From Flectonema sp. DT1601 (Eukaryota), in the NCBI GenBank assembly GCA_964019425.1, contig OZ025781.1, forward strand, positions 992,001-1,056,000: DNA of 64,000 bases, given 5' to 3'. Below are positions 3,372 through 30,565 of this stretch, in pieces. A model generated the notes under the pieces. That model was not told where the DNA came from, ran no database searches, and worked only from the letters and a program-made list of their open reading frames with translations. The translations under genes were made by a program, and so were the position numbers. Each line of letters begins with the position of its first letter. The stretch's first letter is position 1.

Positions 3372-3373
3372 TA

Positions 3374-3523
3374 CCCCCCCCCCCCCAGTTAATCAAAAAA
3401 AAAAAGCAAAATTTCGTAGGACAACAAACAAGTTGGTTTCGGGCTAAGATTAAAAACAATCTTTCTTCGGACCATTCCCCTTACCCAGCCCTCTTCAGCG
3501 AAGAGAGCCAGGGGGACATCTGA
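3374..3523 (-). mobile_element. Short 5'-truncated or non-autonomous PLE-type insertion carrying hammerhead A
   Basis: After removing the DNA transposon, it is flanked by the direct repeat ATTGAGACTGAATCA(C)nTA (1373-1400 and 3524-3547). Sequence is similar to 23995-24108. Confidence 0.65.
3434..3517 (-). ncRNA. Rearranged (A-C-B order) hammerhead ribozyme, copy A
   Basis: Minus strand reads CUCUCUUCG-CUGAAGA-GGGCU...AAUGGUC^CGAAGAAAG...AGCCC-GAAA-CCA. Stem I is CUUCG/CGAAG, stem II is GGGCU/AGCCC, stem III is ACCA/UGGU, and the cleavage triplet is GUC. Confidence 0.75.
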
Positions 3524-5259
3524 ATTGAGACTGAATCACCCCCCCTAGTTAGTAAGTCAGGTAGCATAGTTACGTTTTGTAATTATGAATAAATAAAAAA
3601 TACCTTTATTACAGCTACTAGGATTTTTTATTGTAAAAAAGAAATTGCATTTTAATAGGTAACTTATTACTGCAATTAAATATGGAGCATTGGGTTAGGC
3701 ATTCGGGCACACTTATAATAATATAAATATACCACACTGGATCAATGTTAACTAATATAATTAGTAATTTATGAGACAGCTGGCTAGTTATAGAAAAAAA
3801 TCTTTTTTCGTATTTTTGTCCCGAATTTAGTTGAACGTGAAGGGACTTCATAGTTCATCACTTGTTGTTGGGGCATCGTACGAGTTTTAGAGTAAGATTA
3901 ATTTTTTGGGCAAAGTCCAGAGCAGGGGTGTGTACAGTTCTCACAGACTGGTCCTTCATAGGATATCTACCTGTAACTTTTGGTACAGGAAGTGTATTTT
4001 TCTTTCGATAAAAAATAAACAGAACTATTTAAGACCCATAGCATAGAGTCATATTATCTGAATTTCTGAGTAATATTATTTTTTTTCCCTCCAAAAATGC
4101 CGTCTTAAACCAAAAGGTGGAAAGGTTCCCCTAAGTAAACCGACAAAGATATAAAAGAAACATAAATAACAAGCGCTAACAGCCTTTTGATAAAAGGGGT
4201 ACCTTGATACTCTTCTTTAGGTGTGAGAAAGACATTGCAATCACGGGAAAGAAGAACAATAAACAAAAACCGAACCGTCATTTTGCAGGTTCAGAAACAG
4301 ATAATATAAGTTTACATGTCTTTCCATACCAGGAAACGTTCAAACGATGGTCTCTTTTTTTCGCAAGACCATTCGTATTAGAGCAATAACACCTACCATG
4401 TGAGTACCAAGAGAAACAGGTATTATTCTTACCGCTTTATTTGTCGGTTTCAGAACAGGAAACGACAGCAGGAAAGATAAAAAGGGGGATGTAAAACTTG
4501 GGCTTATCAAAACTTCGCAATAGAAATAGCTGACCACGTTGTAAATCTAATGTGAGTTGTGTTTGGTTTGATAAAACAGTTTTATGCCAACAGTCTCACT
4601 CAAAGTTAAATACTGTGTAGTTATCTGAAAACACTTTTTTTTTTTTTTTTTTTTTTTTTGTGTGGGAGAGGGAGACGGCATGAAATAAATCCACAACTGC
4701 AAGCTCAACCTAATCTGCTGCTAAAAGGACCAGGTGGGTTTTTTGGATGAGAGGGTGTAAATGGCTTCGTGCGAAGCAGAGCAAAGTACTTCACCGACTG
4801 CTTTGAATACTGAGTAAGAAGGGAAAATAAAAAATAATTCGTACTGATGCAGCCGAACCAACAGTTTAAGTAACCCGCTCACCAAAAAAAAGATTTTTAC
4901 ATAAAATAAAAAAAAATTAAAAATCAGCAAACAAACCTTATAAAATTATTAGTGAAGGGAGAGGAAAAAGCGGGGGGAAAAAAGAAAAAAAACCAAAGAA
5001 GAAACATTTTCATTCCTGTATTCAATTTATTCATAACTGAAAAGTCAACGAAACAAATAATCACAGAAGAGCATTAACCAACCAAGAGATGCTATAATCG
5101 ATCAGAAGAGAGACGCTAGTCACTCTTTTTTTATCGACCCCAACTCGATGGTAAAGTTGTAATACACATGAAAAGAAGAACGTAACTAAAAGCAACTTAA
5201 TAACAAAGTTACTTTTTTTCTGTACTCGTCGGTGCAAGCTACCTGATGTTGTTAACTAA

Positions 5260-7750
5260 TTAGTGAATAACAAAAGCAATCCCAACAGCTATCACAACGA
5301 GGAGTATTACGATTATCACACTCAGAACGTAAACTGTTCTTCGACTCTGTGTAAGTTCCCGAAATGAATTCTTACACAGAGATGGTGATAACGGTTTCGT
5401 AGGGTTATCCCTAGGCAGGGTCACACGAGAAGGACTACGAGGCGACTTTGACATTCGAGTGCTAAAAGTACTTCCACTTGTCTTCTTTGACTGTATTGAA
5501 GAAGCAGGTCCTAAATATGCTGAAGGATTACTGTCAACTCTGCTAACGACCAGATCATCATTCAATTCAGTCATCGTACTTCTTATCCCGTACATGATAT
5601 CATTCTCTTCTGGATACCCTCCGAATATAGTCGATGCCTGCATACTACTTTGATAATCACTAACAACATCACTTACTTCAGGTTGTATATTTATAAGAGA
5701 CAAACAACTTCCGACTAAGTGTTTTTGAATCATGCTTCTCTCATCATCCATTGTAACATGTTCCACGACTGGGTGTTGACCTTGCTTTGAAGCAACTCGA
5801 CGGCTTGCCTGTGATTATTAATGTTATAAAGATGATTTATTATATGACATCAAGTGAAGCATATCGTAGCATACCTCAACACCTAATCCAGAACGTCTAC
5901 TGCTGGGAGTTGCTGAGATCCTTGAAGACATTGAGAGCTGTGTTGGTTTACTACATAAGAAAAAAGGAAAGCATTTTTATTAAATTGAAAATAAAAGAAC
6001 AATCGCATACCGTTCGTTCTTCACGTGATCTCCTTGGTTTTAGTTTAAAAGCATGACCAGGTTTAGAGTGACGAGAAGCTTTGCTATTGGGAGACGGCGT
6101 CGCACTTGCGAATACGTCCTCAGCAAGAACGTTATCTTCCAGTGCGAAAGAATGATTTGTGACAAAAGATTGAGGACAGGACTGTACTTCCATATCAGAT
6201 TCATTATCAGATTGTTCAGAAGGAGAGATAGAATCAATTTCTGTTGGCTGACACTTGGGTATGTTCCCAATGTTCTTTTGAAAAGTGAGTGGTGACCCAA
6301 CATTACCAGCTGACATTGCACTATTAGCACGAGGTCCTAAGTACAACACACCTGATGGATCAAAGCAGTCATGACCTCCAAGTGATGATTCGAAATCACA
6401 ATCTGTATCCGTTTCGTATTCATCCTCAGCTAGATATGAATCACTTATTAACTCAGCAGCTGTTCGTCTTAATCGAGGACACTTAACAAGACATAATTTC
6501 AAAAAGTTACCAGCTTCTGCAGAAGGAAGTGTTGGAAGAGAAGGAAGAGGATCATCACTTGCTAACACAGACATCAGCTGAAGACTATTTGTTGTTATGT
6601 GTGAGAATGGAGGCTGAGCTGTAAACATTTCAATCATCGTCGCTCCGAGTGACCAAACATCACATGGAAGCTGTCCAACTTTCTCTCTAATAACTTCGGG
6701 AGCCATCCAAGCTGGAGTACCAGTCATCTCTCCTGAAGTAGCTGACTTCAGCTCATCAAGAGTTGTTGCCGTACCAAAATCAGCGAGTTTGCATATACCG
6801 TGAACACTCACTAAGACATTCGCACCTTTCACATCTCTGTGAACCACACCATTATCATGCAGGTATTGAAGTGCACTTAGAATCTGACGAGTGTAATTCT
6901 TAACAGTCGCTTCTGATAGAGTTCCGAATTCTTTGATTAGAGATGCAATACTTCCACCAGGTACGAATTCCATGAATATATTAATCATTGCACCAACCCT
7001 CTCAGTACAGTAATAGGCTACAATATTATCGTGAGTCAGTTTCTTCATCATTCGAATTTCATGTTGTAAAGAAGTTAGTTTTCGAGCGACTGATGTATCC
7101 TTTAATGTGAATTCAATTGTTTTTACTGCCATCAGCTGACCAGTGTCTTGATTCAGTCCCAGACACACTTTACCCCATGCTCCTTGACCTAAGAACTTAC
7201 CTCGTTTCCATCGAAGTTTTGTAACTTCTTTTGTTTCCAGAGGATTCGATGGGGCTATTGGAGGTACCTTTCCGTGATTTGGTGATCCACAAAACGTACT
7301 CGGTTTTGGGGGAGGGCTGTTTTTGATTTGTTTCTTCTTCTTGTATAAACAAACAATTCTCAATAGAATTACACAACGGGTCATACCTTCCCAAATGATT
7401 TCTACGATTGGAACCGCTGCTGCTGCATCTTCTGTGTGTGAAGTCCGCAGATCCTATCGCTCTCGCGTTGTTGCGATACATCTCTGGGTTTGCTTTGGGA
7501 GATGATCTTTGTGATCTGTTTTAGTATTGAGTAGAAAGGTTTGTTCAAAGAATATATCAAAAGAAATAAACAAACTGCTGTCATACTTTACTTCTGGCAC
7601 AATACCGAAAGTGGTAGTCGTACCCTTGATGTGATTACAAGCATTACTAAAGCTTGTATTATGCGTAAAGCTTGATGCTTTTTCCAAAGTTCCATTGGTG
7701 GCAGCCCAATGCTCTTCGGAACACGGTATGCTTTTCCGCCGTTCGCCCAT
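5260..7750 (-). CDS. STE11/MAPKKK-family Ser/Thr kinase with C-terminal transmembrane anchor (5 exons)
   Basis: Motifs GQGAWG, MAVK, HRDVKGANVL, DFG, GTPAWMAPE. Frame-preserving GT-AG introns 7516-7586, 7317-7386, 5938-6010 and 5809-5874 join ORFs 7454..7750, 5951..7384 and 5260..5766. Protein ends VYVLSVIIVILLVVIAVGIAFVIH. Confidence 0.85.
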
Positions 7751-8028
7751 TTGCTGTGCGCCGCATTAATGAACCTGTTTGATAGAGAGCAATTAATATT
7801 TATGTATTGAAGGAATTGTTGCTGATTATGACACATAGTTAATCTGTTGTAACTGTAAGATAATAATTTATTATTAAAACAAAACAAGCAATAGCATTCG
7901 AAGGGGAAATTCCCAATCAAATTGGTTAAGACAGAAATAGAATTAATAACAAATGTTAACCTTTCAGCTGCATGGATTGTTAATCAGAATTAACTAAAGA
8001 TGACTAACGCTGTATATATTACATGGGC

Positions 8029-9613
8029 TCATCCATAGACAGCTCTGGCCTTTGGCGGACCCGACTTTGTAACAGAAGCGATTGTTTCTTTTTGCTTCTG
8101 CTTTTGCTCTGCAACTTCCGCGCGTTGTTCTTTTTTTTTCTTCTCAGTGAGTTGCTTTTCTTTGATTTCCTTATAAAGTGTTTCGAGAGGTTCGTTGTGT
8201 TTACGAACCTGACGTTGATGACTCGATTGTGGAATAACAAAAGAAGAGAGTTTGTGAGCAAGATATATAGCAAGATGATGAGGTAAGATTACTAGATTCT
8301 CTGAATGGTATCTGTCAGAGAAGTCTTTCTGAATTGGAAGGTTGAAACAAAGTCGAACTCCTAAACTGTTCTCCTTAAGAGATTTAACGCTTTCAGCATT
8401 GCGATGTCTTTTTGCCTTTTCAGTTTCATATAACTGAGTGTCTCTCCATCTTGATTCGTGTAGCTCAACCAACTGATCCGATATATGTAAATATTGAAAG
8501 ATATCCTCAACAGCAAGGAAATTAATAATCCCAAGTACCTGTGATGTGAATAGTCCATTTGATGGTTTTAAAGCTTCCGGACAATCACACAAAACATTTA
8601 ATGGATGTTTGAGGTGTTTCTTCCAATCAGAAAGAGACGCTGATGAATCCTGTATAATGTGATTACTTGCTGTTTTTGGTTGTGTTATAAACTGCTCAAA
8701 GTCAGTTCCAATGTCCTTCATTTCATCACAGCAGCTGCTTCCCTTTGCGAGTCCAAATACAAAGGGAGTAGTGGTGGTGTTATCTTTTAGTATCATTTCT
8801 ATAATTACTTTATCTGGTTTAACACCTGCATATGCTTCCCATAACATTTTAAATATATTTTGTCTTGCTCTCAGTTGTAATGTTATCGTACAATATTTAA
8901 CATTACTCATCCCAGTTGCGTGGAGGTAGAACCAACGAGCTCCATCCTTACTTAGGATGGGATCTTCACAATTCTCTTCTTGTAATTTTGGTTTTCCAAA
9001 ACCAACGTAATTAAAGTGTTCCTATTTTTTAATAATTTGACTTTTAAATTTTATCTTAAAAAAAAGTAACTATTGGTATATTTTTTTTTTAGAAAATAAA
9101 AAAACACACCATCAGATACTCAAACACTGTCGCTGCGTACATTTTCGCGATCTCTTCGTTTTGCTGTGAGCCGGTGTGCCTGTTTTTTTTTTATTAATGC
9201 CAATTCCGTTGTTTAGTAAGGGAGTGAAAGATAAATTGCAACCAGATAACAAACCATTGATAAGCAGCATATCCAACAATAATCAAACAAGGAATGCTCA
9301 GAATTATCCCTAAGACGTCTGTGGGTGGTGGAGGACGATTTTCCTTCTTTTTGGGTGTTGGAATTTCAGTAAAATCTTCTTCATCTCCATCCACTCCTTC
9401 ATCATCATCCTGAGTTGATCCGAATGGATTGTTGTCTTCATATTCTTCCTCCGTGTGATCTGTTCGTTCTACTGCTTCGCTGAAGAAATGATCGCTTTCT
9501 TCTTCATCATCGTCAATGTCTCCAAACTCATCGTCATCATCATCAGAACAAGAAGCTTGTTGGATAACCACAACAGCTAATAATAGAATTAATAAAACTT
9601 TTATTGAATTCAT
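8029..9613 (-). CDS. CCDC47: CCDC47 / DUF1682 ER membrane protein, PAT complex subunit (3 exons)
   Basis: Introns 9180-9254 and 9022-9109 join ORFs 9194..9613 and 8029..8910 in frame. Architecture is signal peptide, acidic lumenal segment, one TM, then WHTGSQQNEEIAK...EHFNYVG...FYLHATG...LQLRARQN...PFVFGL, then a basic coiled-coil tail. Confidence 0.8.
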
Positions 9614-9825
9614 ATTTTGTGTAGTCTGAATGGAGATAATATAAAAAACTGAGATTACGAACAGAAAATTTCGAAGTCAGTCAGATGGTTTGTACCAGCG
9701 GCAGCTGTAACACAATTCTAAATTACGACCGGTGGGACATCAATAAGCTAAAAAGAAAACAAGAGCTTTAAAAACTCTGTTGGTAGAGAAAAAACGTTCT
9801 CCATGAGACTGATGAGGTAAAATAA

Positions 9826-10569
9826 TCAATAATGACCCCCAATAGCTGCAAGCCGAAGATGTCCTCTGGCATCAGTACCGACTTTGTTTTGAAGAGTCTC
9901 GTCGCCTCCGTTATTCAATAACAATTCGTATATTTCATTTTTTCCTCCATTCCATGCTGCCCAAATTAGAGGTGTGTCACCATTTTTTGGAGACACGTGA
10001 TTAGGATCAGCACCCACTGAGAGTAACTGATTACATGCTTCAAAACGTTGATTTCTAGCAGCCCACATCAAAGGAGACCATCCCGACAAGGAAGAAAAAT
10101 CAACAGTTGCTTTTCTATCGAGGAGTAGCTCAAGGAGGGGGATGTCATTATTAGCAGCGGCCTCATGCAGAGCAGTTACTCTGTCGTTGTTCTCTCTTGT
10201 GTCGGTGTGGTCTACGTCAGTACCACAGTTTAAGTGAAGCTTAACTATGTCAATATTACCTGACTGAGCTGCTGTGATCATCTCATCACCGTGTCCTTCG
10301 TAGTTCAGATTCTTTAGTTCTTTAAAATAACGAAACTTATCATTGACGCTAATCATTACTTCTTCTTCTGCTACAATACCACAACTAACAAACAACTCAT
10401 CATCTGGTAGAACATCTCCTCCATAACTAAGTTGTTGATATCTAGCAGGAGCAACGTTATGAATATTGTGTGCAATTTGTTCCTTTACAATGAGAACCGT
10501 ATCATTTGGAGATATATCAATCACTTCTTTCCGACTGTCTTCGCATATTATTAATGTGATGGGGAGCAT
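9826..10569 (-). CDS. Ubiquitin-like + ankyrin repeat protein (247 aa)
   Basis: Ubl N-terminus (DISPNDTVLIVKEQI...QQLSYGGDVLPDD). Ankyrin motifs TALHEAA, SPLMWAA, TPLIWAA. Confidence 0.85.
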   Translation of the reverse strand: MLPITLIICEDSRKEVIDISPNDTVLIVKEQIAHNIHNVAPARYQQLSYGGDVLPDDELFVSCGIVAEEEVMISVNDKFRYFKELKNLNYEGHGDEMITAAQSGNIDIVKLHLNCGTDVDHTDTRENNDRVTALHEAAANNDIPLLELLLDRKATVDFSSLSGWSPLMWAARNQRFEACNQLLSVGADPNHVSPKNGDTPLIWAAWNGGKNEIYELLLNNGGDETLQNKVGTDARGHLRLAAIGGHY

Positions 10570-10871
10570 TCTCTCTGTGAAGCATAATTACAGCTTGGGG
10601 TTGCACAGCCTTCTCAGACTGAAAGGAAGTAATATATCTCATGCTCTGTCCTGTAAATATTAATTAAGGTTATTGTCTGTATAAACAGATTAAGAAAACA
10701 TTAAATAAAAATCCAAAACCATAAATAGGTTGCGAAGCGATTGATAAAAGGATCCCCTTTTAGACAGCTGACGGGATTGCTTCCTCATAAAGTGTAGCCA
10801 ATGCCACTCGCTGGTTTTTGTTTGCATAAATAACAGAGAGATGATGTCTCTACTTGCGACGGTGATTACTT

Positions 10872-12638
10872 TCATTCGAGAGCGGCGACAGCCTCTTGGC
10901 TATTAGAGGTAACTGTAGCTAAGATTGATAATATATTTTGAACTTCAGCCTCTTCAAAAGCAGAAGCTCTAAGCTGTAAGACCAGCCTAACAACATCACC
11001 AGTATCAACACCATGAGAACCACTATTGAGGGGGATCTCGAGCAGGTGTTGGAGCTCCTCCGCAATTTTTGGAGTCGAAGGAGTTGTCGCTAGCGATCGA
11101 ATAACTGCTATTACGTGCTGATCAGAAATTTTCATATTTGTGAATATCATTTTACGAAATAATAGTTTCGATACCCTAAATTGACCAGCTCTCGCACACA
11201 AATCAAATAACCTCACAAATGAACTCTCATTATAATTTCCTTTACGAGCACTATAATCATACGCAGCTAAACCTTTTCCAAGCAACTCAACAGGATGGTA
11301 ATTTGAGTTATCGATTGGCATCTCAATAAGAGCTTCGAGATACGTTTCGAGCGCAGCAATTGAAGGAACCTCTCTCGAATCTGTCATGAAATCCCAATAT
11401 CTGTCGAGGTGCTTAATCTGAGTGGTTTTATCTTCTTTACAGATTTTAAATAAATGACTAAAGGTTTCGATGTCGTTTTCGACAACTCGTTCCTTTAAGA
11501 TTGTGATAACTGCTTCAGCTTGTGTGTGTGTGTTTGATATCCTCAACGTGTTATTACACATTGCTAGTGTTGGTCTCTCATCACTTACTTCTAAGAATTC
11601 ATACAGGTGTTCAAATGCTTTGTCAGCAGTTCTACAGCAATTGATTAGCTTTGTGTAAGCAATTTCATTCTTTTCCGTTATAAAGTTAAATATTGAAAGA
11701 GCTTTTTCATAGTCTCTGTCTATCGCACAAGCATCCAACATGTGCTGACAACATCGAGCAGTTGGATATAACTTAAATTGATTGACAATCTCTTCCCATT
11801 CTTTCCAAGCAACGTCTGGTCTATTATTTTTAACTGCGGCTTCCAAAAGTCCCTCATACATTTGTGATGTTGTCGGAATAGATTTTTCCATAGCCTCAAA
11901 CTTTAGAGACAAAGCATCATCTAATTTTCCATACGCTCCACAAAGTCTTATTAGTTGTGAATAAGAGAATGATGATACGGTTGCTCGGTGACCTTGTTGG
12001 GACTCACGCATTTTTCGAAGAACTTCAAAAGCATCTTTATATAATGCAAGAGCACCATCCTTGTGCGGTGACACCAGTAGTTTTGCGAGAGAAAGACGAA
12101 AATAACGAAACAAATGACCACAACTGTAATCGTCTAGAACATGATGACGAGCATGCATCATTCCGAATAAAGTAACAGGAGGAGGAAGAGATTCAAGATC
12201 AGCATACTTTAAAAGTAATCCAAGATCTAAAGAACAAACATCACCATCTTGAACATGTTCATAGAACTTTATGGTCCCAACTCGCTGTAGTTCTTTTGAA
12301 ATTGTGTGTTCCATTGGCTTTGGGATACCTCCTCTGAATTCAAGATCAGTCGCGTAGTATCTCATTCTCATTCTCAGGTCTTGTTTTGTCTTTACTTCAA
12401 CAGATCTGTTTGTATTATTATACTCGACTATAGATTTATATCGAACCATTGATTCCAGATCCCATTCATTCCATTCAGCTGCTTGTCGTTTCTTTTCCAT
12501 CTCAGCAATCTGCGCCTTCGTTTTAAAAACAGAATGAATCGCTCCCTTTGTTTTTTGAAATCTCGTGTCTATCCGAAACTTTGACATCGTCCGTCGCTGC
12601 TGAACGAGGTTTCGGGGAGAGTTCATTATTGTAAACAT
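10872..12638 (-). CDS. Pentatricopeptide repeat (PPR) protein, probably mitochondrial
   Basis: PPR motifs YSQLIRLCGAYGKLDDAL, YEGLLEAAVKNNRPDVAW, QHMLDACAIDRDYEKAL. Start placed at 12638 (MFTIMNSPRNLVQQRRTMSK, transit-peptide-like), just after a TTATCTTACAG acceptor; the ORF track starts at 12683. Confidence 0.85.
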   Translation of the reverse strand: MFTIMNSPRNLVQQRRTMSKFRIDTRFQKTKGAIHSVFKTKAQIAEMEKKRQAAEWNEWDLESMVRYKSIVEYNNTNRSVEVKTKQDLRMRMRYYATDLEFRGGIPKPMEHTISKELQRVGTIKFYEHVQDGDVCSLDLGLLLKYADLESLPPPVTLFGMMHARHHVLDDYSCGHLFRYFRLSLAKLLVSPHKDGALALYKDAFEVLRKMRESQQGHRATVSSFSYSQLIRLCGAYGKLDDALSLKFEAMEKSIPTTSQMYEGLLEAAVKNNRPDVAWKEWEEIVNQFKLYPTARCCQHMLDACAIDRDYEKALSIFNFITEKNEIAYTKLINCCRTADKAFEHLYEFLEVSDERPTLAMCNNTLRISNTHTQAEAVITILKERVVENDIETFSHLFKICKEDKTTQIKHLDRYWDFMTDSREVPSIAALETYLEALIEMPIDNSNYHPVELLGKGLAAYDYSARKGNYNESSFVRLFDLCARAGQFRVSKLLFRKMIFTNMKISDQHVIAVIRSLATTPSTPKIAEELQHLLEIPLNSGSHGVDTGDVVRLVLQLRASAFEEAEVQNILSILATVTSNSQEAVAALE

Positions 12639-12683
12639 GATCTGTAAGATAATAAATAATATAACGATTCCCTTATCGGGCAT

Positions 12684-13840
12684 GGGGTTAAAATCAGTAA
12701 TAACTCATGTTAATATTTTTCCTTTAAAAAAAAAGAATTTTAAAATAAGAATATATCTAACGGCCCTGCAGTTAGTTCGCAATTAGCGTGGTAATTAAAA
12801 ATAATATTTGATATGGGCAGATTCCCTACAAAGTGTAACACCAATACAAAGACGATGTCCTTGGACAAGAATTAACTAAAAACCATTGCAGCAATTTCTG
12901 CACAAGGCGACAAAAAAGTCAATTAGACAAAACAGGAACAGAAACAAGTTAGTATATGAGATTATTTGAAAAAAAAAGAAAAAAAAATGCATTTAAGATA
13001 CTAAGATAAGTATGTTCTTGAGACTTTATTCTAAATTTATTATAAAATCAGTTTCAACAGTAATTCTTATCCAAAGAACTGATAATAACAAAACGGAACA
13101 TAAACAAGGTTGGGTTATTATGAATTTTGATAATTAAAACATAGATAGCTATCTAATCAAACGTTACTATATTATGAGTGCTCTACGAGGGTAATTCACA
13201 GTAACAGAAGACACAATCAGTAGCCGATTCCGAAGACCATTTAATTTAATTTATAAAAATATTAATGAACACGAATCTTCAGCTTTCCATCCTTTGCCTA
13301 CCTTATTAAACTATTGAGCTAATAAAAAAAATATAAAAATAAATAATGAAATAAATAATCAATTTTGAATTAAATTTATTGATACTCAATTCTGTAGAAG
13401 ACAGTAGGAGATAATACAATAAAAAAAAAAAATAAATAAAAAATGAAGAAAGGGGTTTATAATGTCAAGGAAATTTTACTTTCAACAAATATCAAAAGTA
13501 AAAAGGAAATTAATAATTCCGTTACTCCGATTAATAGGTCTGTCAGTCTTTCACAAATGTAAAACAAAAAATGCCTCACACACAAGGAAACACTCACAGC
13601 CATTAAAAAGGGAAGGTGGAAATGGTGTGTAAGTAATAAAAATAAAAAAAAACGAACGAAATTTCCATTCCATATAAAACCTTTCATTAAATAATTATTA
13701 ATATCCAAAGGGACTTACCGAAGGATTGAAGAAAGAGTACCACAAAACTTGGGCAATACGAATAACTATATCAAGAAACGGAATCAAAAGGAAGCTGAGG
13801 TGAGATAGTCAGTTTTGGTTCTTAGCCGTTACGGAACAAG
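12684..13840. repeat. Segmentally duplicated intergenic block (copies ~16910-18010 and, in part, ~32395-32731)
   Basis: Long near-identical stretches. Examples: GGGTTAAAATCAGTAATAACTCATG at ~12685 and ~16913; GGGACTTACCGAAGGATTGAAG at ~13709, ~17879 and ~32602. Confidence 0.9.
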
Positions 13841-14149
13841 TTATTTAGGCAAACTATCCTTTACTACACAAATAAGTTTCAAAAACGGGACGTTTATTCA
13901 AATCTAAAATAATAAAATCCCCAAACTTTACACGAGACGCGCAGCTATCTGTTGTGAAAGATGTGGTCTAATTATCCGTATTACCTCAAGGCTGACAGTC
14001 AAGATTGTCGGAGAAATTATTGTTCCTTTTGAGCTTCAGAATGCAGTATCAAATTATCCTCGACTTCCTATAACTGGACTGGTACTGTCGTCATGATTAA
14101 TGTCACAAATAACAAATGATCGATCCTCGATATGACAAACTCAAATATA

Positions 14150-16363
14150 TCAAATCGCAAGAAGCCTATCAGCTTCTTCCAGAGTCCATAAAAATTGATT
14201 CAGCGGAAGAGACATGTTGAGGACATCTCTTCTCCAACCACCACTTGAGAAATTTGTGATGTTGTAGTGTTCCGGAATCGAGTCTTCAGAAAACAACCAT
14301 CTGATAACATGAATATTCGATCCCATCGAAAGGAAGACATAAAAAGGATCTTCTTGCGATGCATGTTTCATTGTCGCTTCTATGATAACAGACCTTGAAC
14401 GCATCAGAAATCCTAACGTCAGGTCAGCCCCAAAGACCCCAAACATCACAGCAACGTTTTCTAACATGCTCGATAATTTCATAAAACTATATTTTGAAAA
14501 CTCCACAGTCATCGGCTTCCAACCAGCTGACTTCGCTCCCTTCATAAGTTCCCCAGAGTTCGGGAGAAATCTCGTCCCACCTGCTCTCCTGTTTATGAAT
14601 AGAAGCTGCTTTCTATCACCAAGTGGAAGAGGAGAGAAATTATAACCAAAGTTACCTGTTAGCCAATGTCTTACGAGCGGTAATATGCTGTAAGTATACT
14701 TCGATAAAGGGGATAATCGAGGTGGTGGACACGCAACAATTACTTTTCTAAAACAAACTGTCCCCTGATAACCATGAGTACCATTCCCTGAATAGGATGG
14801 AGCAGTTATCACTTTATCAAGAAATGGAATATTTAGTTTATCCGCATATTTAAACCACCAATCACCTCGAAGTACCGAAGATGCATAATGCGGCCTCGGC
14901 TCACTGTAATAAGAAAGTGTTGTTGGCCGACACTTATATTTCCATCCGTGGTCGAGATTCCACTTCTTCCCGCGTTTTGATTTCCGTTTAAAAGAGCAGA
15001 GAGGAATCATTGGAATTACTCGACTGATATTATGAAGACTCAATGCATGGATCACAACTCCCCATAATTCTCCCAACCAGTGGGCCCAATTTTCGATGCC
15101 GGTACTCCTTTGCAGGTAGCCATTCCTAACAACCAAAAGAGGACTTTCTTCCCAATGGTCACAAGTGTCTTTGCTAATGTTTTCCCCCATCTTTATCCCC
15201 GAGAGGTAAAGTTGATCTCCAGGTGCCCACTGGTCTTTAAACTTACGAAAAGTGCCGTCTACAAGTGCTCCTTGAAATTCTCTTTGCATCAGACCAGCCA
15301 TGGCACCAACATAAATTCTTGGTTTTGCATAAGTCGTAGGGCACAACATTAACCCATCACAGCAACTACACGTTAAGAGGCTATCATCTTGCAGCCAACA
15401 ACTGCTTGCTTCAATAGTATCATTGTGATAGTCTATGAGGATGTCCTTTATATCTGAGAGAGAAGTTCCATTTACTACCGCTGGATGGATATCAAAAGTA
15501 TCTTTAGATACTTGAGTTCTTAATGCAGGGAAACAACGGGGTGGCCAATCAAGTTGAGACGGCCACTTTTTAGAAAGAAATGCCGTTGTTTCTATAAGAT
15601 CGTCAGCTTGTGTTGTATTGTCAGCTTGTGTTGTATTGTCAGCTTGTGTTGTATTGTCAGCTTGTGTTGTATTGTCAGCTTGTGTTGTATTGTCAGCTTG
15701 TGTTGTATTGTCAGCTTGTGTTGTATTGTCAGCTTGTGTTGTATTGTCAGCTTGTGTTGTATTGTCAGCTTGTGTTGTATTGTCAGCTTGTGTTGTATTG
15801 TCAGTGTCAGTTGGTTCTTGTAGTTGGTCTGCTTCACCCAGTTGGGAGGTATCTGACGATCCATTGAAGTTACCCTGAAGTTGATCATCAGCTTGTGTTG
15901 TATTGTCAGCTTGTGTTGTATTGTCAGCTTGTGTTGTATTGTCAGTGTCAGTTAGTTCTTGTAGTCGGTTTGCTTCACCCAGTTGGGAGGTTTCCTTAAC
16001 TGACGATACGTTGAAGTTATTTTGAAGTTGCTCATTATGGTGTGTTAAATTCTCAATGTCGGGCATTGCTGTCGGCAGGTCTCCTTGAATCTGTTGCTCT
16101 GAAATGTCACTACTAATAAATCCTTTCCGAGTAGATACTTTGTTTGTGCCATACGATTGTAAGGTTTGCTCATTATTATTAGTGATGTATATTTCATCGT
16201 ATCTCTTTTTCTTTATCCTTTTGATATCAATTGTGATGTTTCTACGAACTAATACACTTGTCATAGCCTCGAGTGTCTTTGGCTGATAAGAAGTTGAGAA
16301 GATCATCAACAGTAGTGCGGCGCTAAATATTAGCACCAATCTGAACCTTATCTTGGATCCCAT
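14150..16363 (-). CDS. GT61/DUF563-like type II membrane glycosyltransferase, copy 1 (737 aa)
   Basis: N-terminal signal anchor and DNTTQA repeat stem. NWAHWLGE, LLFINRR...TRFLPNSGEL and VMFGVFGADLT...VIIE match the GT61 N..H, I.R..R.I.N and GVHGAGL motifs. Confidence 0.75.
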   Translation of the reverse strand: MGSKIRFRLVLIFSAALLLMIFSTSYQPKTLEAMTSVLVRRNITIDIKRIKKKRYDEIYITNNNEQTLQSYGTNKVSTRKGFISSDISEQQIQGDLPTAMPDIENLTHHNEQLQNNFNVSSVKETSQLGEANRLQELTDTDNTTQADNTTQADNTTQADDQLQGNFNGSSDTSQLGEADQLQEPTDTDNTTQADNTTQADNTTQADNTTQADNTTQADNTTQADNTTQADNTTQADNTTQADNTTQADNTTQADDLIETTAFLSKKWPSQLDWPPRCFPALRTQVSKDTFDIHPAVVNGTSLSDIKDILIDYHNDTIEASSCWLQDDSLLTCSCCDGLMLCPTTYAKPRIYVGAMAGLMQREFQGALVDGTFRKFKDQWAPGDQLYLSGIKMGENISKDTCDHWEESPLLVVRNGYLQRSTGIENWAHWLGELWGVVIHALSLHNISRVIPMIPLCSFKRKSKRGKKWNLDHGWKYKCRPTTLSYYSEPRPHYASSVLRGDWWFKYADKLNIPFLDKVITAPSYSGNGTHGYQGTVCFRKVIVACPPPRLSPLSKYTYSILPLVRHWLTGNFGYNFSPLPLGDRKQLLFINRRAGGTRFLPNSGELMKGAKSAGWKPMTVEFSKYSFMKLSSMLENVAVMFGVFGADLTLGFLMRSRSVIIEATMKHASQEDPFYVFLSMGSNIHVIRWLFSEDSIPEHYNITNFSSGGWRRDVLNMSLPLNQFLWTLEEADRLLAI
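15603..15804 (-). repeat. 18-bp coding minisatellite (GACAATACAACACAAGCT)x11 encoding DNTTQA
   Basis: Perfect tandem units. Further blocks at ~15890-15945, within 20065-20555 and at ~34622-34696. Confidence 0.95.
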
Positions 16364-16480
16364 TTTGATTTTTTAGTACATTTACAACTTTATAAAAGGA
16401 AATTATTTATCAAAATACATAACACAACTCAAAAAGGTGAATGAGTTTCAGACACTCCTGACGAATCAGCATATGTTTCA

Positions 16481-16575
16481 ACATTTTAAATATATTTTGT
16501 CTTGAAGTTGTAATATTTAACATTGCTCATCTCCCAGTTGCGTGGAGGTAGAACCAACGAGCTCAATCCTTACTT
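16481..16575 (-). pseudogene. Degraded fragment of CCDC47 exon 3
   Basis: Matches 8843-8955 (CCCAGTTGCGTGGAGGTAGAACCAACGAGCTC) with small internal deletions. Confidence 0.85.
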
Positions 16576-18610
16576 ACTCGAAAATTACTGATTTTGTCCC
16601 ATTTTACCGATTTTAACCCTTTCCTTATGTACTGAAGTTCCGTGCCGTTTCCACACCACAGCTGCTCATTAGACTCAGGAAGAGTACCTGACCCCGAAGA
16701 GTTTGTGAATGCAGTGCACAGATCAGCAAAGAAAACGACAGGTTTCTCACGCTCCAACGAAGGACGCCGGGTCTTGGATAAATAAATCAGGGTAAAGAAA
16801 AACTTACGTCTTGCTATTACTATGTAGAAGATCTGGAATCCTAAACTTCTCCAAAAATACAACGAGAAAAAGGGTTCAAAATCGGTAATTAACTTTCAGA
16901 CTGTAAGAAAAAGGGTTAAAATCAGTAATAACTCATGTTAATATTTTTTCCTTTAAAAAAAAAGAATTTTAAAATAAGAATATATCTAACGGCCCTGCAG
17001 TTAGTTCGCAATTAGCGCGGTAATTAAAAATAATATTTGATATGGGCAGATTCCCTACAAAGTGTAACACCAATACAAAGACGATGTCCTTGGACACAAA
17101 GTAAGACAAGAATTGACTTAGCGAACGCATTGCAGCAATTTCTGCACAAGGCGACAAAAAGTCAATAAAGATTAAAACAAAACCAGCAACAACAGAAACA
17201 AGTTAGTATATGAGATTATTTAAAAATAAGAAAGAAAGAAAAGAAAAAAATGCATTTAAGAAAATAAGATAAGTATGTTCTTGAGACTTTATTCTAAATT
17301 TATTATAAAATCAGTTTCAACAGTAATTCTTATCCAAAGAACTGATAATAACAAAACGGAACATAAACAAGGTTGGGTTATTATGAATTTTGATAATTAA
17401 AACATAGATAGCTATCTAATCAAACGTTACTATATTATGAGTGCTCTACGAGGGTAATTCACAGTAACAGAAGACACAATCCGCATTGATTGTTGAATTA
17501 GCTTCAACTGATGTAATTTAATTTATAAAAATAATAATGAACACTAATCTTCAGCTTTCCATCCTTGCCTACCTTATTAAACTATTTATGTGTGCGCAAA
17601 CCGAAAACAACCCAATAAAGTAAGGGTGTTAACGTTACCCTGCCACAATTCTATTTTCGCTCATGAAACATGTCTTCGAGATGAAAAAATAATAATAATA
17701 TTCCACTCTCCCCTAGCTGTCACAAATGTAAAACAAAAAATGCCTCACACACAAGGAAACACTCACAGCCATTAAAAAGGGAAGGTGGAAATGGTGTGTA
17801 AGTAATAAAAATAAAAAAAAACGAACGAAATTTCCATTCCATATAAAACCTTTCATTAAATAATTATTAATATCCAAAGGGACTTACCGAAGGATTGAAG
17901 AAAGAGTACCACAAAACTTGGGCAATACGAATAACTATATCAAGAAACGGAATCAAAAGGAAGTTGAAGTGAGATAGTCAGTTTTGGTTCTTAGCCGTTA
18001 CGGAACAAGGCCCAGCCTGACAAAACATCGAACTAGAATTTAAAAGGAAAATAAAACAACGAACACACGCTTGATTGACAACAGCCCACTCTAGACTCGA
18101 TCAGAGAAGGGTTATTTGAACGGAAGTATATCATAGCGTTGAGAGCAGGTTACAAGTAGATTACTACTAATTGCGAGAGCTTGTATTGTTTTGAAATTGA
18201 GCAAAGCTCATCTTGATGATCATTAATTAAGTCTTCTGTGTCACGAAAAGTCTGCTGTGGAGGGAAAGTAAAGCCTGGGTAGTCTACATAACGAATGTGT
18301 ATTAAAAATAAAAGAGAGTATTTAGGCAAACTATCCTTTACTACACAAATAAGTTTCAAAAACGGGCAAATCTAAAATAATAACATCTCCAAACTTTACA
18401 CGAGACTCAACGAGGCCTCAGCTAAAATTCTTTTTTTCCGAAAACCCAGGTTGGTTCTGAAACTATTTGTGTAGGAAAGGCCTCCCCTTACCCAAGTTAT
18501 TATTTCCGATGCGGTACTAAACTAAAGAAAACAACATTAAAGTCATCCCCTCGACTGACTATTTCACAAATAACAAATGATCGATCCTCGATATGACAAA
18601 CTCAAATATA

Positions 18611-21040
18611 TCAAATCGCAAGAAGCCTATCAGCTTCTTCCAGAGTCCATAAAAATTGATTCAGCGGAAGAGACATGTTGAAGACATCTCTTCTCCAACC
18701 ACCACTTGAGAAATTTGTGATGTTGTAGTGTTCCGGAATCGAGTCTTCAGAAAACAACCATCTGATAACATGAATATTCGATCCCATCGAAAGGAAGACA
18801 TAAAAAGGATCTTCTTGCGATGCATGTTTCATTGTCGCTTCTATGATAACAGACCTTGAACGCATCAGAAATCCTAACGTCAGGTCAGCCCCAAAGACCC
18901 CAAACATCACAGCAACGTTTTCTAACATGCTCGATAATTTCATAAAACTATATTTTGAAAACTCCACAGTCATCGGCTTCCAACCAGCTGACTTCGCTCC
19001 CTTCATAAGTTCCCCAGAGTTCGGGAGAAATCTCGTCCCACCTGCTCTCCTGTTTATGAATAGAAGCTGCTTTCTATCACCAAGTGGAAGAGGAGAGAAA
19101 TTATAACCAAAGTTACCTGTTAGCCAATGTCTTACGAGCGGTAATATGCTGTAAGTATACTTCGATATAGGGGATAATCGAGGTGGTGGACACGCAACAA
19201 TTACTTTTCTAAAACAAACTGTCCCCTGATAACCATGAGTACCATTCCCTGAATAGGATGGAGCAGTTATCACTTTATCAAGAAATGGAATATTTAGTTT
19301 ATCCGCATATTTAAACCACCAATCACCTCGAAGTACCGAAGATGCATAATGCGGCCTCGGCTCACTGTAATAAGAAAGTGTTGTTGGCCGACACTTATAT
19401 TTCCATCCGTGGTCGAGATTCCACATCTTCCCGCGTTTTGATTTCCGTTTAAAAGAGCAGAGAGGAATCATTGGAATTACTCGACTGATATTATGAAGAC
19501 TCAATGCATGGATCACAACTCCCCATAATTCTCCCAGCCAGTGGCCCAAATTGTTGATGCCGGTACTCCTTTGCAGGTAGCCATTCCTAACAACCAAAAG
19601 AGGACTTTCTTCCCAATGGTCACAAGTGTCTTTGCTAATGTTTTCCCCCATCTTTATCCCCGAGAGGTAAAGTTGATTTCCAGGTGCCCACTGATCTTCG
19701 AACTGACGAAAAGTGCCGTCTACAAGTGCTCCTTGAAATTCTCTTTGCATCAGACCAGCCATGGCACCGACATAAGTACTTGGGCTTGCATAAGTCGTAG
19801 GACACAACATTAACCCATCACAGCAACTACACGTTAAGAGGCTATCATCTTGTAGCCAACAACTGCTTGCTTCAATAGTATCATTGTGATAGTCTATGAG
19901 GATGTCCTTTATATCTGAGAGAGAAGTTCCATTTACTACCGCTGGATGGATATCAAAAGTATCTTTAGATACTTGAGTTCTTAATGCAGGGAAACAACGG
20001 GGTGGCCAATCAAGTTGAGACGGCCACTTTTTAGAAAGAAATGCCGTTGTTTCTATAAGATCGTCAGCTTGTGTTGTATTGTCAGTGTCAGTTGGTTCTT
20101 GTAGTTGGTTTGCTTCACCCAGTTGGGAGGTATTCGACGATCCATTGAAGTTTCCCTGAAGTTCATCATCAGCTTGTGTTGTATTGTCAGCTTGTGTTGT
20201 ATTGTCAGTTGGTTCTTGTAGTTGGTCTGCTTCACCTAATTGGGAGTTATCTGACGATCCATTGAAGTTACCCTGAAGTTGATCATCAGCTTGTGTTGTA
20301 TTGTCAGCTTGTGTTGAATTGTCAGCTTGTGTTGTATTGTCAGCTTGTGTTGTATTGTCAGCTTGTGTTGTATTGTCAGTGTCAGTTAGTTCTTGTAGTC
20401 GGTTTGCTTCACCTAATTGGGAGTTATCTGACGATCCATTGAAGTTACCCTGAAGTTGATCATCAGCTTGTGTTGTATTGTCAGCTTGTGTTGTATTGTC
20501 AGCTTGTGTTGTATTGTCAGCTTGTGTTGTATTGTCAGCTTGTGTTGTATTGTCAGTGTCAGGTTCTGTAAGTTCTTCAATTAAATCATTTTGTCCATTA
20601 CTTGAATCACTACTATCGATTGTTTCGTTTGATTCTCGTAGTCGGTTTGCTTCACCCAGTTGGGAGGTTGCCTTAACTGACGATACGTTGAAGTTACTTT
20701 GAAGTTGCTCATTATGGTGTGTTAAATTCTCAATGTCGGGCATTGCTGTCGGCAGGTCTCCTTGAATCTGTTGCTCTGAAATGTCACTACTAATAAATCC
20801 TTTCCGAGTAGATACTTTGTTTGTGCCATACGATTGTAAGGTTTGCTCATTATTATTAGTGATGTATATTTCATCGTATCTCTTTTTCTTTATCCTTTTG
20901 ATATCAATTGTGATGTTTCTACGAACTAATACACTTGTCATAGCCTCGAGTGTCTTTGGCTGATCAGAAGTTGAGAAGATCATCAACAGTAGTGTGGCGC
21001 TAATAATTAGCACCAATCTGATTCTTGTTCTGAAACCCAT
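18611..21040 (-). CDS. GT61/DUF563-like glycosyltransferase, copy 2 (809 aa)
   Basis: Near-identical paralogue of 14150..16363 with a longer repeat stem. Confidence 0.75.
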   Translation of the reverse strand: MGFRTRIRLVLIISATLLLMIFSTSDQPKTLEAMTSVLVRRNITIDIKRIKKKRYDEIYITNNNEQTLQSYGTNKVSTRKGFISSDISEQQIQGDLPTAMPDIENLTHHNEQLQSNFNVSSVKATSQLGEANRLRESNETIDSSDSSNGQNDLIEELTEPDTDNTTQADNTTQADNTTQADNTTQADNTTQADDQLQGNFNGSSDNSQLGEANRLQELTDTDNTTQADNTTQADNTTQADNSTQADNTTQADDQLQGNFNGSSDNSQLGEADQLQEPTDNTTQADNTTQADDELQGNFNGSSNTSQLGEANQLQEPTDTDNTTQADDLIETTAFLSKKWPSQLDWPPRCFPALRTQVSKDTFDIHPAVVNGTSLSDIKDILIDYHNDTIEASSCWLQDDSLLTCSCCDGLMLCPTTYASPSTYVGAMAGLMQREFQGALVDGTFRQFEDQWAPGNQLYLSGIKMGENISKDTCDHWEESPLLVVRNGYLQRSTGINNLGHWLGELWGVVIHALSLHNISRVIPMIPLCSFKRKSKRGKMWNLDHGWKYKCRPTTLSYYSEPRPHYASSVLRGDWWFKYADKLNIPFLDKVITAPSYSGNGTHGYQGTVCFRKVIVACPPPRLSPISKYTYSILPLVRHWLTGNFGYNFSPLPLGDRKQLLFINRRAGGTRFLPNSGELMKGAKSAGWKPMTVEFSKYSFMKLSSMLENVAVMFGVFGADLTLGFLMRSRSVIIEATMKHASQEDPFYVFLSMGSNIHVIRWLFSEDSIPEHYNITNFSSGGWRRDVFNMSLPLNQFLWTLEEADRLLAI

Positions 21041-21167
21041 TTGTTATGTTTAGTACATTTACAACTTTATAATAGAATTGAATTGAATTAGTTATCAAAA
21101 AAACACAACTTCCAAAAATAACATCTCCTAAAAAATCACCTTCGACCTTCGAACTTAAAGATTTTTC

Positions 21168-21842
21168 TTAGAACCCATCTAATACTTTCCATCTCTCAGT
21201 GAGATGGTACTGTAGGCTCTGTAGATGTTTTCTGAATGAGCGAAGATGCCGACTGAAGTGACTCCCCAGAAACCACACGCTGTGTGTCCTCTTAGCATAG
21301 CTGATGCTCCAACGTAAGTCATTCAACCAATGACACCAATTACTACGACTCCCCAGGGTTCGATTACAGCAAAACCAGCTGTGATGGCACCAAACCCCCA
21401 TCGCTGCTCCTAATGTAGTTGTGGCGGCAACCTTGGCTGATACAACACCAGCTCCTCCAGTGATAGCTAGAGTTGACACGCAGTTGAATCCATACCACCC
21501 AAACCAAAGAATGAATACACCTAAAGCTTGTTGTGGGATACTGTGAGGAGCTTCTGAAAACACCTGAAATTAAATTATTAAAATATTACAAAAACCTTTC
21601 TGCAATAATAAAAGATTACATGCCATTCTCAAATCGATAACCTGTTGCAAGAGCAGCTGGGTCTTCCTGTCCTGTAAGTCTTCCTCTTCTAGGTCCTAAC
21701 ATGACTGATCCAGCGAGAGCAGAAAACCCACCAGTCATGTGGACTACATAACACCGAGTTGACCGTATTTTAAAGTAGTCCTTTGATCCGTCGTTGAATG
21801 CTGATGCCCATCCACATGTAGACCAACCCCAGTAGACAACAA
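21168..21842 (-). pseudogene. Ammonium transporter (Amt/MEP) pseudogene fragment
   Basis: Contains VVYWGWSTCGWA, VVHMTGGFSALAGSVMLGPRRGR and [14 protein letters not shown]. The DFAG motif and N-terminus are missing, and the frame is lost after GAAMG. Confidence 0.85.
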
Positions 21843-22274
21843 CTTTATAACTTTATTAAAAAAGGTTTTTTGTTTGTGTCACGAAACCGTGAACCGACTT
21901 AAACTGATAAAGCTAAAGCAGGTTTACGTGTGCTGCCAACATTCTTTTTCGTTTTTACAATACTTGTTAAATGCAAAAAAAAGAACTCCACACCACAAAG
22001 CACTGTACAAAGAGATAAAAACCAGAAAACGAAGCGTTGCTATGATTGAAGCTTTATTCGTACACAAGCTACTGAACAAGTTTTTTTTTTTTTCTTTTTA
22101 AATGGCGTTTGAGTTATAAACATATCTCTCTGTTTGCTGCTACCTTAACCAATATTATCATTTGCTATAATTATAGTTTCTAGCTTTCAATTACTATTTA
22201 GAATATCAAATGAATAAACAAAGCATAACGAAACCTATAAAAAATATAATCACTACCTCACATCTAGTGAGCTA

Positions 22275-23276
22275 TTAATTACGGCTTACATAACACTGCT
22301 CGAAAACAGCGCTATTATTACTAGGCAGCTGAACAGACTCATGGGCGATGCTGTGTAAGAGGAATCTTTCTCCTATTTTAGTCACACTACTAAGACCTGA
22401 AAGGTTAAGAGAAGTGAGGCATGAACAGGAAGACAAGAAATTATTTCCAATAGTTACGAGACTACTAAAACCTGAAAGATCAAGAGAAGTGAGGCATGAA
22501 CAGGAAGACATGAAGCAAACTCCAATAGTGGTGAGACTACTAAGACTTGAAAGGTCAACAGCAGTGAGTTGTGAACAGGAATACAAGAAATTATTTCCAA
22601 TAGTTGTGAGACTACTAAGACCTGAAAGGTCAACAGTAGTGGGGCGTGAACAGGCCACGAAACAACGTCCAATAGTGGTGAGACAACTAAGACCTGAAAG
22701 GTCAACAGAAGTGAGTTGTGAACACTCACACAAGAAATAATTTCCAATAGTGGTGACACTACTAAGACCTGAAAGATCAAGAGAAGTGATTGAAGATCTC
22801 TGCATGAAATCTTGTGAGATGATTCTGATGTCGAAATTTGAATTGCGGAAAGAAATCCGTTTGGCAACAGAAGGCAGCATATTATTACTAACACGGAGGC
22901 AACCATCTTCTGAGAATGTAGGGGTGTCTAGGTTTAAGTATTCCTCATTGTGGTTTCCAAGCCATTGAAGCAGCTTCTCCCGCTTCGATTCATCAACAAA
23001 CCAGCATTTACCAAATAACTGAAACAACTTCTTCCGCATTTCCATCTCGCTGTCTGCACCCAATCCATGATCTGCCAGCCGCTCGGCTTCGTCAAGGGTG
23101 TCACCAGCTAACGAGAGTTCAACTTCCTCCGGATCGACATCCCACTCGTCAGCCGCTGCCGTCAACACGTCGCTCACAAGGGAATCAGCACCAACTGTGA
23201 CTGACACAGCAGCGAGTTCCAATTCCGGGAATGTCACAAAAACCTGCATTGTTTTGAGTGATCTGCCGAAAGACAA
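22275..23276 (-). CDS. Ubiquitin-like + 22-aa leucine-rich repeat (BspA/LRR_5-like) protein
   Basis: Ubl region (MQVFVTFPE...VELSLAGDTLDEAERLADHGL). About seven repeats of LTSxDLSGLSSLTTIGxxFLxxCS with a 66-nt period. Confidence 0.85.
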   Translation of the reverse strand: MSFGRSLKTMQVFVTFPELELAAVSVTVGADSLVSDVLTAAADEWDVDPEEVELSLAGDTLDEAERLADHGLGADSEMEMRKKLFQLFGKCWFVDESKREKLLQWLGNHNEEYLNLDTPTFSEDGCLRVSNNMLPSVAKRISFRNSNFDIRIISQDFMQRSSITSLDLSGLSSVTTIGNYFLCECSQLTSVDLSGLSCLTTIGRCFVACSRPTTVDLSGLSSLTTIGNNFLYSCSQLTAVDLSSLSSLTTIGVCFMSSCSCLTSLDLSGFSSLVTIGNNFLSSCSCLTSLNLSGLSSVTKIGERFLLHSIAHESVQLPSNNSAVFEQCYVSRN

Positions 23277-23969
23277 GAAAGAATGCGGTCATGCGGTAAC
23301 AACAGTGCACACACTTTCTCAAGAGAGTGCCCAAACTCAATGCGTTTAAGTTCTGCAGAGAAAAGAATACTCGCGTCACAATAATTAAATATACGGAGAA
23401 AATAGCGTTGGCTGCAGTGAATGTCTGTACTGCAATTCTGTTTTCTACTGAAAAAAAGTAGACGTGAAGTCAGGCTGATTACTTGCTTTCTTAAAATGTG
23501 AATATCACTATCCATCATCTCTGTCTCTGGGAACCGATCCCCCCAAATTAATCAATCTCTTTCTAGTTATGAATGTGTTTGATAATTGATAAGACTTCTA
23601 TTGATATTGTTATTATATCCGAACACTTTGAAACTAACGCGTTTATATAGAGAATGGGGAAGTTGAAACAAAAATTTAATATCAAAAGTACTTGACTGAA
23701 AGAAAATATTTGCATGTGAGAAAGAAACCGTTCGATTTTGTACGTAAAATACAAAAGTATTGTATCAAAAAAACAACATTAGTTAGTTAGTTAAACATTC
23801 GAATATAACGATTGAGTGAAAGCAAAAAAAATAGGCGTAGCGATACGACGATAAGGAGAGGACTTAATTCTAATGCAAACTAAATTGGAGAATTATAATT
23901 TCTTTTTTTGGATTTTATCCGGAGAGCTAGTTAGTATCATTAATTAGAGCTAGTTAGTATTAATGGTTA

Positions 23970-24285
23970 TCAGTCAAAAGGGGAGAGGGCGGGAAAATTT
24001 TCGTAGGACAACAAACGAATAATGGTTGGTTTCGGGATAAGATTAAAAAATCCTTCTTCAGACCATTCCCCTTACCCAGCCCTCTTCAGCGAAGAAAGCA
24101 AGGTAGACACTGCGGTGTCAGGCCTGTCCTACTCATCGCATTTGCCACGTCAACATGGTTATTTCTTTTACCATGTAACACAGTCCCCCTATATAATTAT
24201 CAGTGAACGCGGGATACCAACAAAATGAGTGGAGCTGAGTTATGTTTATGGGGATTGAATAATAAAAAAATAAAAAAAAGTTCCA
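23970..24285 (-). mobile_element. Truncated PLE-type insertion of the same family as 3374-3523
   Basis: Contains hammerhead B. Flanked by diverged ~45-bp direct repeats TTAGTATCATTAATT...AGAGCTAGTTAG.ATTAATG.TTATC (~23931-23971, ~24289-24336). Boundaries are approximate. Confidence 0.55.
24027..24108 (-). ncRNA. Rearranged (A-C-B) hammerhead ribozyme, copy B
   Basis: Minus strand reads CUUUCUUCG-CUGAAGA-GGGCU...AAUGGUC^UGAAGAAGG...AUCCC-GAAA-CCA. Stem I is retained through G-U pairs; stem II has one mismatch. Confidence 0.7.
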
Positions 24286-24468: not shown

Positions 24469-24561
24469 TGAAAGATTAGTTAGTATCATTAATTTTAGAA
24501 CAGAAAAGTGAGAATAAGAAAAGTAGAGATCAATAAAAGAAAAGTATTCATTTCTGCAGTT
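24469..24561 (+). repeat. 93-bp direct repeat flanking the PLE (second copy 26462-26554)
   Basis: Identical TGAAAGATTAGTTAG...TTTCTGCAGTT on both sides of the RT element. Confidence 0.95.
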
Positions 24562-24588
24562 TCCTAACATCAAAGGGTAATAGAATAT

Positions 24589-24656: not shown

Positions 24657-24745
24657 TTCATTATATGTTGAAGTTGCTATCGTTCAAAGATAAAAATCCA
24701 TCGGAGCTCGCCAGGATAGGGCTAGCAATGTTTATTTGCTTTTGC

Positions 24746-30524: not shown

Positions 30525-30565
30525 TCCTAAAGATTAGTTAGTTAGTATTAATAATTATCAGTCAA

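Follow-up and report, generated by a model that had tools for sequence, protein, structure and literature searches.

Within a 64,000-nucleotide stretch of the genome of Flectonema sp. DT1601 (assembly GCA_964019425.1, contig OZ025781.1, positions 992,001 to 1,056,000; hereafter the window, with coordinates counted from its first letter), we analyzed three hammerhead-type motifs, termed copies A, B, and C, all of type CSG, in which the conserved blocks follow the order CUGAnGA, cleavage site, GAAA. Copies A and B represent one short repeat family that carries the complete motif, and copy C, which belongs to a different sequence family, lies near the 3′ end of a Penelope-like retroelement. The reading we favor, at a probability of roughly 60%, is that A and B are likely 3′ ends, now decaying, that belonged to a Chlamys/Naiad-type Penelope-like element or to a short parasite of such an element, and that their RNA is predicted to cut slowly after GUC.

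A four-helix hammerhead fold of type CSG is well supported in three copies

All three motifs are encoded on the minus strand. Copy A occupies positions 3434–3514, with a GUC site and a predicted cut at 3470/3469; copy B extends over 24027–24105, also with a GUC site, and is predicted to cut at 24061/24060; copy C (24589–24656, with its core match at 24589–24645) has a GUA site and a predicted cut at 24611/24610. An initial annotation of the window had placed A and B on this strand in this block order, and our recomputation confirmed the positions, the order, and both cuts, as well as its statement that C shares the strand order of A and B. From the 5′ side, A and B contain stem I, CUGAAGA, stem II, a linker, stem III, and GUC, and then stem I, a second linker, stem II, GAAA, and stem III. 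All conserved core nucleotides and a NUH cleavage site are present in both (CUGAAGA, GAAA, and GUC), with CUGAAGA starting at 3498 and GAAA at 3440 in A. Stems I, II, and III comprise 6, 6, and 4 pairs in A and 9, 5 of 6, and 4 in B, where stem II contains a C·U mismatch and the first pair of stem I is G·U. The stem II pairing first given for both copies, GGGCU/AGCCC, holds for A, whereas B reads AUCCC.

Alongside stems I, II, and III there is a fourth helix, for which a single register is common to A and B: CCCCUGGCUC/GGGUAAGGGG in A (3514–3505 with 3486–3477) and UACCUUGCUU/GGGUAAGGGG in B. Nine of its ten positions pair in each of these copies, and C has a counterpart of 7 bp; in every case the helix is followed by AA and then by stem III. 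The initial annotation had recognized that such a helix exists, but the pairing it proposed for A (UCCCC/GGGGA) is one step out of register and forms part of a competing hairpin that we describe below.

A relaxed scan of the window with all six block orders returned three motifs, A, B, and C, every one in CSG order. One alternative is chance pairing within a purine-rich inverted repeat, and a descriptor restricted to three helices is indeed prone to false matches: it gave 58 CSG-order matches (448 in any order) in 3,782 shuffled windows, and two metagenome loci that passed as CSG hammerheads (L019 and L048) are bacterial 23S rRNA. Once the descriptor also required a fourth helix, with 7 pairs or more and its end 2 nt ahead of stem III, a single match remained in 3,883 shuffles against the three real motifs of the window. 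Since the window holds two families that are independent of each other, and one of these sits precisely where a retroelement ends, we find chance scarcely credible as an explanation. The hammerhead-type fold with its conserved fourth helix, as originally proposed, is well supported as real in all three copies, and from these sequences each copy is predicted to cleave itself after its site. A search of Rfam returned no match at A, B, or C, which a crossed topology would lead one to expect.

A Penelope-like element bears copy C at its 3′ end

Downstream of copy C, 27 nt separate the motif from the 3′ end of a 5′-truncated, frame-broken Penelope-like element on the minus strand (24562–26461). This element is a 1.9-kb insertion bounded by perfect 93-bp direct repeats (24469–24561 and 26462–26554), a length greater than is usual for a target-site duplication. 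The protein encoded by its reading frame, which a short deletion has broken, is a Penelope-type reverse transcriptase that shares 99% identity with protein P0001, from a cluster of 59 members; where its close relatives carry a species name, the species is Diplonema papillatum. In four of the 16 relatives scanned, a GIY-YIG match precedes the reverse transcriptase (P0011 above Pfam's cut-off; P0016, P0022, and P0028 below it), and six have a match to a UCH-type cysteine peptidase fused to it (P0008, P0012, P0014, P0015, P0018, and P0019). Judged by this domain layout of its relatives, with GIY-YIG before the reverse transcriptase, the element is probably of the Chlamys/Naiad type; its reverse transcriptase motifs also resemble, by eye, those of a Chlamys consensus in the portion of the PMC8557442 supplement consulted. 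The host itself appears diplonemid-like: a Rab14 gene in the window has its best matches at 85–89%, and two further matches at 81% bear the labels of diplonemid species. That the same wiring is found at the 3′ end of this neighboring element supports the reading we favor for A and B.

The CSG fold recurs in published Naiad consensi and in a metagenome contig

Craig et al. 2021 (PMC8557442) detected no canonical hammerhead among Naiads or in the majority of Chlamys elements; these authors flagged eight families with core halves 35–50 nt apart and listed only "core" or "half-core" matches. Examined by eye, five of five complete Naiad 3′ ends in supplement parts 14–15 (Naiad-2_Nbra, Naiad-3_Nbra, Naiad_Hcon, Naiad_Hpol, and the consensus preceding Naiad-2_Nbra) hold the CSG fold together with the fourth helix, and a sixth consensus with the fold is found in a passage of part 13. 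Across these six consensi, several of them from nematodes, the fourth helix measures approximately 9–16 bp, and the helix sequences all differ, yet pair; two of the consensi bear the authors' own label HHR_half_core. Naiad_Hpol, for example, pairs CUUCA/UGAAG in stem I and GCCAC/GUGGC in stem II, and its fourth helix reaches 16 bp. Its stem I resembles that of A and B, and the stem I of C (CUUA/UAAG) recurs in three consensi of the Nbra block. Other Naiads in the same supplement have GAAAC ahead of CUGAUGA, which is a different order.

A DNA pattern that covers A/B and the published CSG pair matched 8 viral loci and at least 120 metagenome loci. Three of the 168 loci fetched in total, with this and other patterns, passed a CSG filter, among them L019 and L048, which were rejected as the rRNA noted above. 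The third, L012, is an independent CSG hammerhead at 904–980, close to where its metagenome contig of 1,074 nt ends, with the same four helices, including a perfect 10-bp fourth helix, and with a short hairpin that buries its core. It matched none of the Penelope-like reverse transcriptases compared and nothing in Rfam. The published CSG contigs were not recovered among the metagenome matches listed, and a pattern built on the C-type stem I matched 11 viral and 29 prokaryote loci, none of which has the fold.

A and B belong to a family of apparent 5′-truncated retro-insertions

A and B are 85% identical over 117 nt and hence form one family. Copy B likely extends over approximately 215 nt of the minus strand (23978–24192), within boundaries that we infer, between near-identical 15-nt flanks with 3 mismatches. 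The similarity of A to B covers 3408–3518 on the minus strand and is 5′-truncated relative to B, with its 5′ start falling within the second of two 5′ hairpins present in B. A 22-bp repeat (3524–3545, partner 1373–1394) is the likely target-site duplication of A, and it encloses A plus a later inverted-repeat element inserted in its downstream copy. The latter element (approximately 1399–3373) has imperfect terminal inverted repeats of approximately 200 bp, and its insertion site was apparently a TA within G runs; it yielded no identifiable transposase.

A third member, fragment D (30566–30624, minus strand), escaped the initial annotation, as did the competing hairpin and an outer helix in B. 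D consists of the 3′ end of the family without the ribozyme, lies between perfect 16-bp direct repeats (30625–30640 and 30550–30565), and shows 6 nt of microhomology at its 5′ junction. A and D begin at different internal points of B, and B and D have one 3′ end in common. An nhmmer search over the window returned no copies of the family besides A, B, and D. These three look like 5′-truncated retro-insertions, and their varied 5′ ends and flanking repeats point to target-primed reverse transcription. The motif TACTAAC occurs on the minus strand at or near A, B, D, and the Penelope-like insertion in 7 of its 10 instances in the window (3554, 23936–23959, 24294, 24485, 26478, and 30547). Both 5′-truncated retroelements start just after TACTAAC...TAATCTTT, for which a target preference or an older repeat is possible.

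The outer helix of B comprises 8 bp (24132–24125 with 24010–24003) and is flanked by GAUGA and GAA, forming a junction (24137–24125 with 24010–24000) that encloses the whole ribozyme. Its 3′ strand is conserved in A and D, and its 5′ strand occurs once on the minus strand of the window; we put chance at roughly 1 in 1,000. In layout the junction is like a second hammerhead's stem II; its core, however, is GCGAUGA, with no valid site after it. The junction may represent a relic minimal hammerhead (compare passages of PMC4209133) or a tandem G·A junction. A broader hypothesis builds on this arrangement. In it, CSG would be the missing ribozyme of a whole branch of Penelope-like elements with an N-terminal endonuclease, from diplonemids to nematodes, and A/B would be a regulated version, held off by a co-transcriptional hairpin and lodged within the loop closed by stem II of another, degenerate hammerhead core (GAUGA, 8-bp helix, GAAA); the family would capture one ribozyme topology in the course of supplanting another within a single element. 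We put this forward tentatively and think it unlikely.

The compactness of B also invites a reading in which A/B is a free-standing, retrozyme-like element of approximately 215 nt that has its own CSG ribozyme, yields a small and possibly circular RNA, is served by reverse transcriptase in trans, and was never the tail of a coding element. B is structured, has near-identical 15-nt flanks and pairable ends, and shows no coding remnant upstream; moreover, retrozymes without long terminal repeats (non-LTR retrozymes) derive from Penelope-like elements, according to the portion of bioRxiv 10.64898/2026.07.22.740005 available. However, no tandem array occurs in the window, the folding z-score of B is merely −1.87, and simple 5′ truncation fits A, B, and D equally well. 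We regard a free-standing origin, which departs from the favored reading mainly in descent and not in chemistry, as unlikely. Within the window, neither a tandem array nor a partial tandem of the kind termed a pseudo-LTR lies beside A, B, or D.

A different retroelement might also have supplied the motif. Trypanosome elements use a ribozyme like that of hepatitis delta virus at their 5′ signature, and A/B could be the corresponding signature of an Ingi/L1Tc-like element at 26875–30537, with a hammerhead in its place. Fragment D indeed lies approximately 30 nt upstream of the Ingi-like frame on the same strand. We dropped this explanation, which we consider very improbable, because the fragment sits within a 16-bp direct repeat of its own and has no ribozyme, and because no Ingi sequence follows A or B; the Ingi-like frame is, in addition, itself 5′-truncated inside its endonuclease domain. 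The 5′-truncated element as a whole (26555–30537, minus strand) includes endonuclease, reverse transcriptase, and RNase H, and its (AAAT)n tail abuts the 93-bp repeat. The initial annotation had the fold used by at least two retroelement families here. This is borne out for C, at the 3′ end of a Penelope-like element; for A and B, we infer a Penelope-like partner. A candidate for it is the second subfamily, P0002, which has 24 members and shares 71% identity with the protein in the window.

Divergence and a competing hairpin temper the favored reading

Several observations weigh against the interpretation of A and B as ends of a Penelope-like element with a working, if slow, ribozyme. The sample consists of three copies from one 64-kb window. 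Copy A stops short of where B and D end, and it terminates in a T run rather than in a tail shared with them. There is no reverse transcriptase remnant beside A, B, or D, and Penelope-type proteins match the window only at approximately 24.7–26.4 kb. When relatives of the element next to C were sought by protein, none was confirmed among 67 pattern matches in metagenome contigs or among 113 in viral contigs, and a pattern specific for A/B had no match in prokaryote genomes. The hand reading of Naiads covers 6 of some 50 families, in supplement parts chosen by word-search match, and the one Chlamys 3′ end read, in the consensus preceding Chlamys-2_cBra, has no CSG motif by eye.

The comparison of A with B belongs among these points. 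Across 86 columns the copies differ by 8 substitutions and one 2-nt indel. Seven of the substitutions fall in helices, where three stay paired via G·U, three break a pair in one copy, and one depends on the register; none is compensatory between the two copies compared. The initial annotation had described the differences in stem I as preserving pairing via G-U. Approximately 15 core positions are unchanged, a result for which we estimate a chance of about 1 in 5 at such divergence. On these sequences, the differences are what decaying copies of an intact parent would show, and they are no evidence for selection on the copies themselves. Between A/B and C there is no significant sequence similarity (best blastn E 0.056), so that their agreement, which had been put down to cross-family covariation, is one of architecture and not, strictly speaking, covariation.

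A further difficulty lies in the competing hairpin. In A and B alike, the CUGAAGA core and the bases after it are able to pair with the 5′ flank and the stem I strand, so that the core is buried; in A this hairpin has 13 consecutive pairs, and the first 47 nt reach −24.4 kcal/mol. Pseudoknot-free folding gives the core-burying hairpin a pair probability of 0.99 and stems I and II 0.00 in both copies, values biased toward the hairpin because the program cannot form crossed helices. Stacking sums in A come to approximately −10 kcal/mol for stem I, −12 for stem II, and −16 for the fourth helix, and the crossed fold could thus compete with the hairpin. Four 5′ positions vary, and in each copy two of the changes there favor one fold and two the other, so neither fold is clearly preferred.

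These properties can be accommodated in two ways. The hairpin would form first during transcription and is likely a brake that keeps cutting slow or delayed. It may instead mean that the A/B family is inactive: A/B would then descend from a CSG ribozyme that no longer cuts, with the long hairpin as the working structure, for instance as a signal for reverse transcriptase, and the core kept by recent descent. The length and stability of the hairpin in A speak for such a loss, as does the Poseidon element, whose hammerhead was not needed for insertion in vitro and showed cutting only with protein, as described in PMC11167929. Yet the 3′ blocks (the site, the second strand of stem II, GAAA, and stem III) are intact in both copies, though the hairpin needs none of them, and the four variable positions lend neither fold a clear advantage. 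We judge outright loss of cutting in the family to be a fairly poor prospect. On the favored reading, too, the present genomic copies, above all B, may be weak or dead.

A proposed route from read-through transcription to insertion

Euglenozoa rely on read-through transcription and trans-splicing. In the window, the long host-gene frames are all on the minus strand, as are the A, B, C, and D insertions, so that element RNA could be produced by read-through, without a promoter of its own. In the mechanism we propose for the favored reading, stems I, II, and III would cross, and the fourth helix would join stem I to stem II at their outer ends, as in published CSG ribozymes, replacing the usual loop-loop contact. 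Slow cutting would then free the element RNA from a read-through transcript or out of copies joined head to tail. An autonomous element would supply the reverse transcriptase and GIY-YIG nuclease that insert this RNA starting at its 3′ end, a process expected to leave 5′-truncated copies with flanking repeats such as A, B, and D. Copies that retain the whole ribozyme could come from uncut or religated RNA, as was described for Poseidon (PMC11167929).

Other features of the window

Three near-identical paralogues with 18-bp repeats lie at 14150–16372, 18611–21043, and 33169–35118. A tandem non-coding repeat of approximately 535 bp occupies 30.9–32.3 kb, and a tandem gene pair is found at 44704–46924.

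Discussion

Type CSG is already known and very rare; its setting in a retroelement appears to be new. As given in the passages of Eckert et al. 2023 (PMC10085705) available, the type comprised two similar soil-metagenome sequences, named CSG-1 and CSG-2, which cleave in vitro at 0.004 and 0.03 per min; no example, bar one GCS candidate, came from the genome of a known organism, and the authors considered the evidence for type CSG weaker than that for type SGC. The motifs described here resemble this pair in their C-S-G order, complete core, and crossing stems I–III, and in a fourth helix that pairs the 5′ flank with the first linker and is followed by AA and stem III. In contrast to that pair, they form two unrelated families in a eukaryote genome, one of them at a retroelement end, and A and B add a hairpin in the second linker, the competing core-burying hairpin, and the outer helix.

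Some relatives of the element at copy C share with Naiad and Chlamys elements the position of GIY-YIG before the reverse transcriptase, and the element itself shares the short tail past the 3′ motif. A and B, unlike those elements, have no coding part, and PMC8557442 mentions no diplonemid or euglenid, either in its text or in its supplement. Canonical hammerheads of Penelope-like elements, as presented in the parts of Cervera and de la Pena 2014 (PMC4209133) consulted, are likewise sited at the end of the element, were proposed to cut it from precursor RNA, and had low activity in vitro. They are type I (C-G-S) and often need dimers, whereas A, B, and C are non-circularly permuted and, with stem III complete, could adopt the fold in monomeric form. 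Non-LTR retrozymes, described in the available text of bioRxiv 10.64898/2026.07.22.740005 as non-autonomous derivatives of Penelope-like elements, are similar in being short, non-coding hammerhead elements tied to Penelope-like elements, and monomers of them occur. Those retrozymes carry type-I hammerheads in tandem and are found in animals, whereas A/B is of type CSG, dispersed, and in a protist. The literature searched, a body outside of which most subscription journals lie, yielded no account of CSG hammerheads in either diplonemids or retroelements, and the passages seen of PMC13725137 and of the retrozyme preprint describe none in retroelements.

Two unrelated eukaryotic families, one of which ends a recent Penelope-like insertion, together with six Naiad consensi, give type CSG, which had previously consisted of two similar sequences, a biological context. 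This wiring would explain why descriptor searches missed hammerheads in Naiad and Chlamys elements, and it would weaken the case for such elements having spread with no hammerhead.

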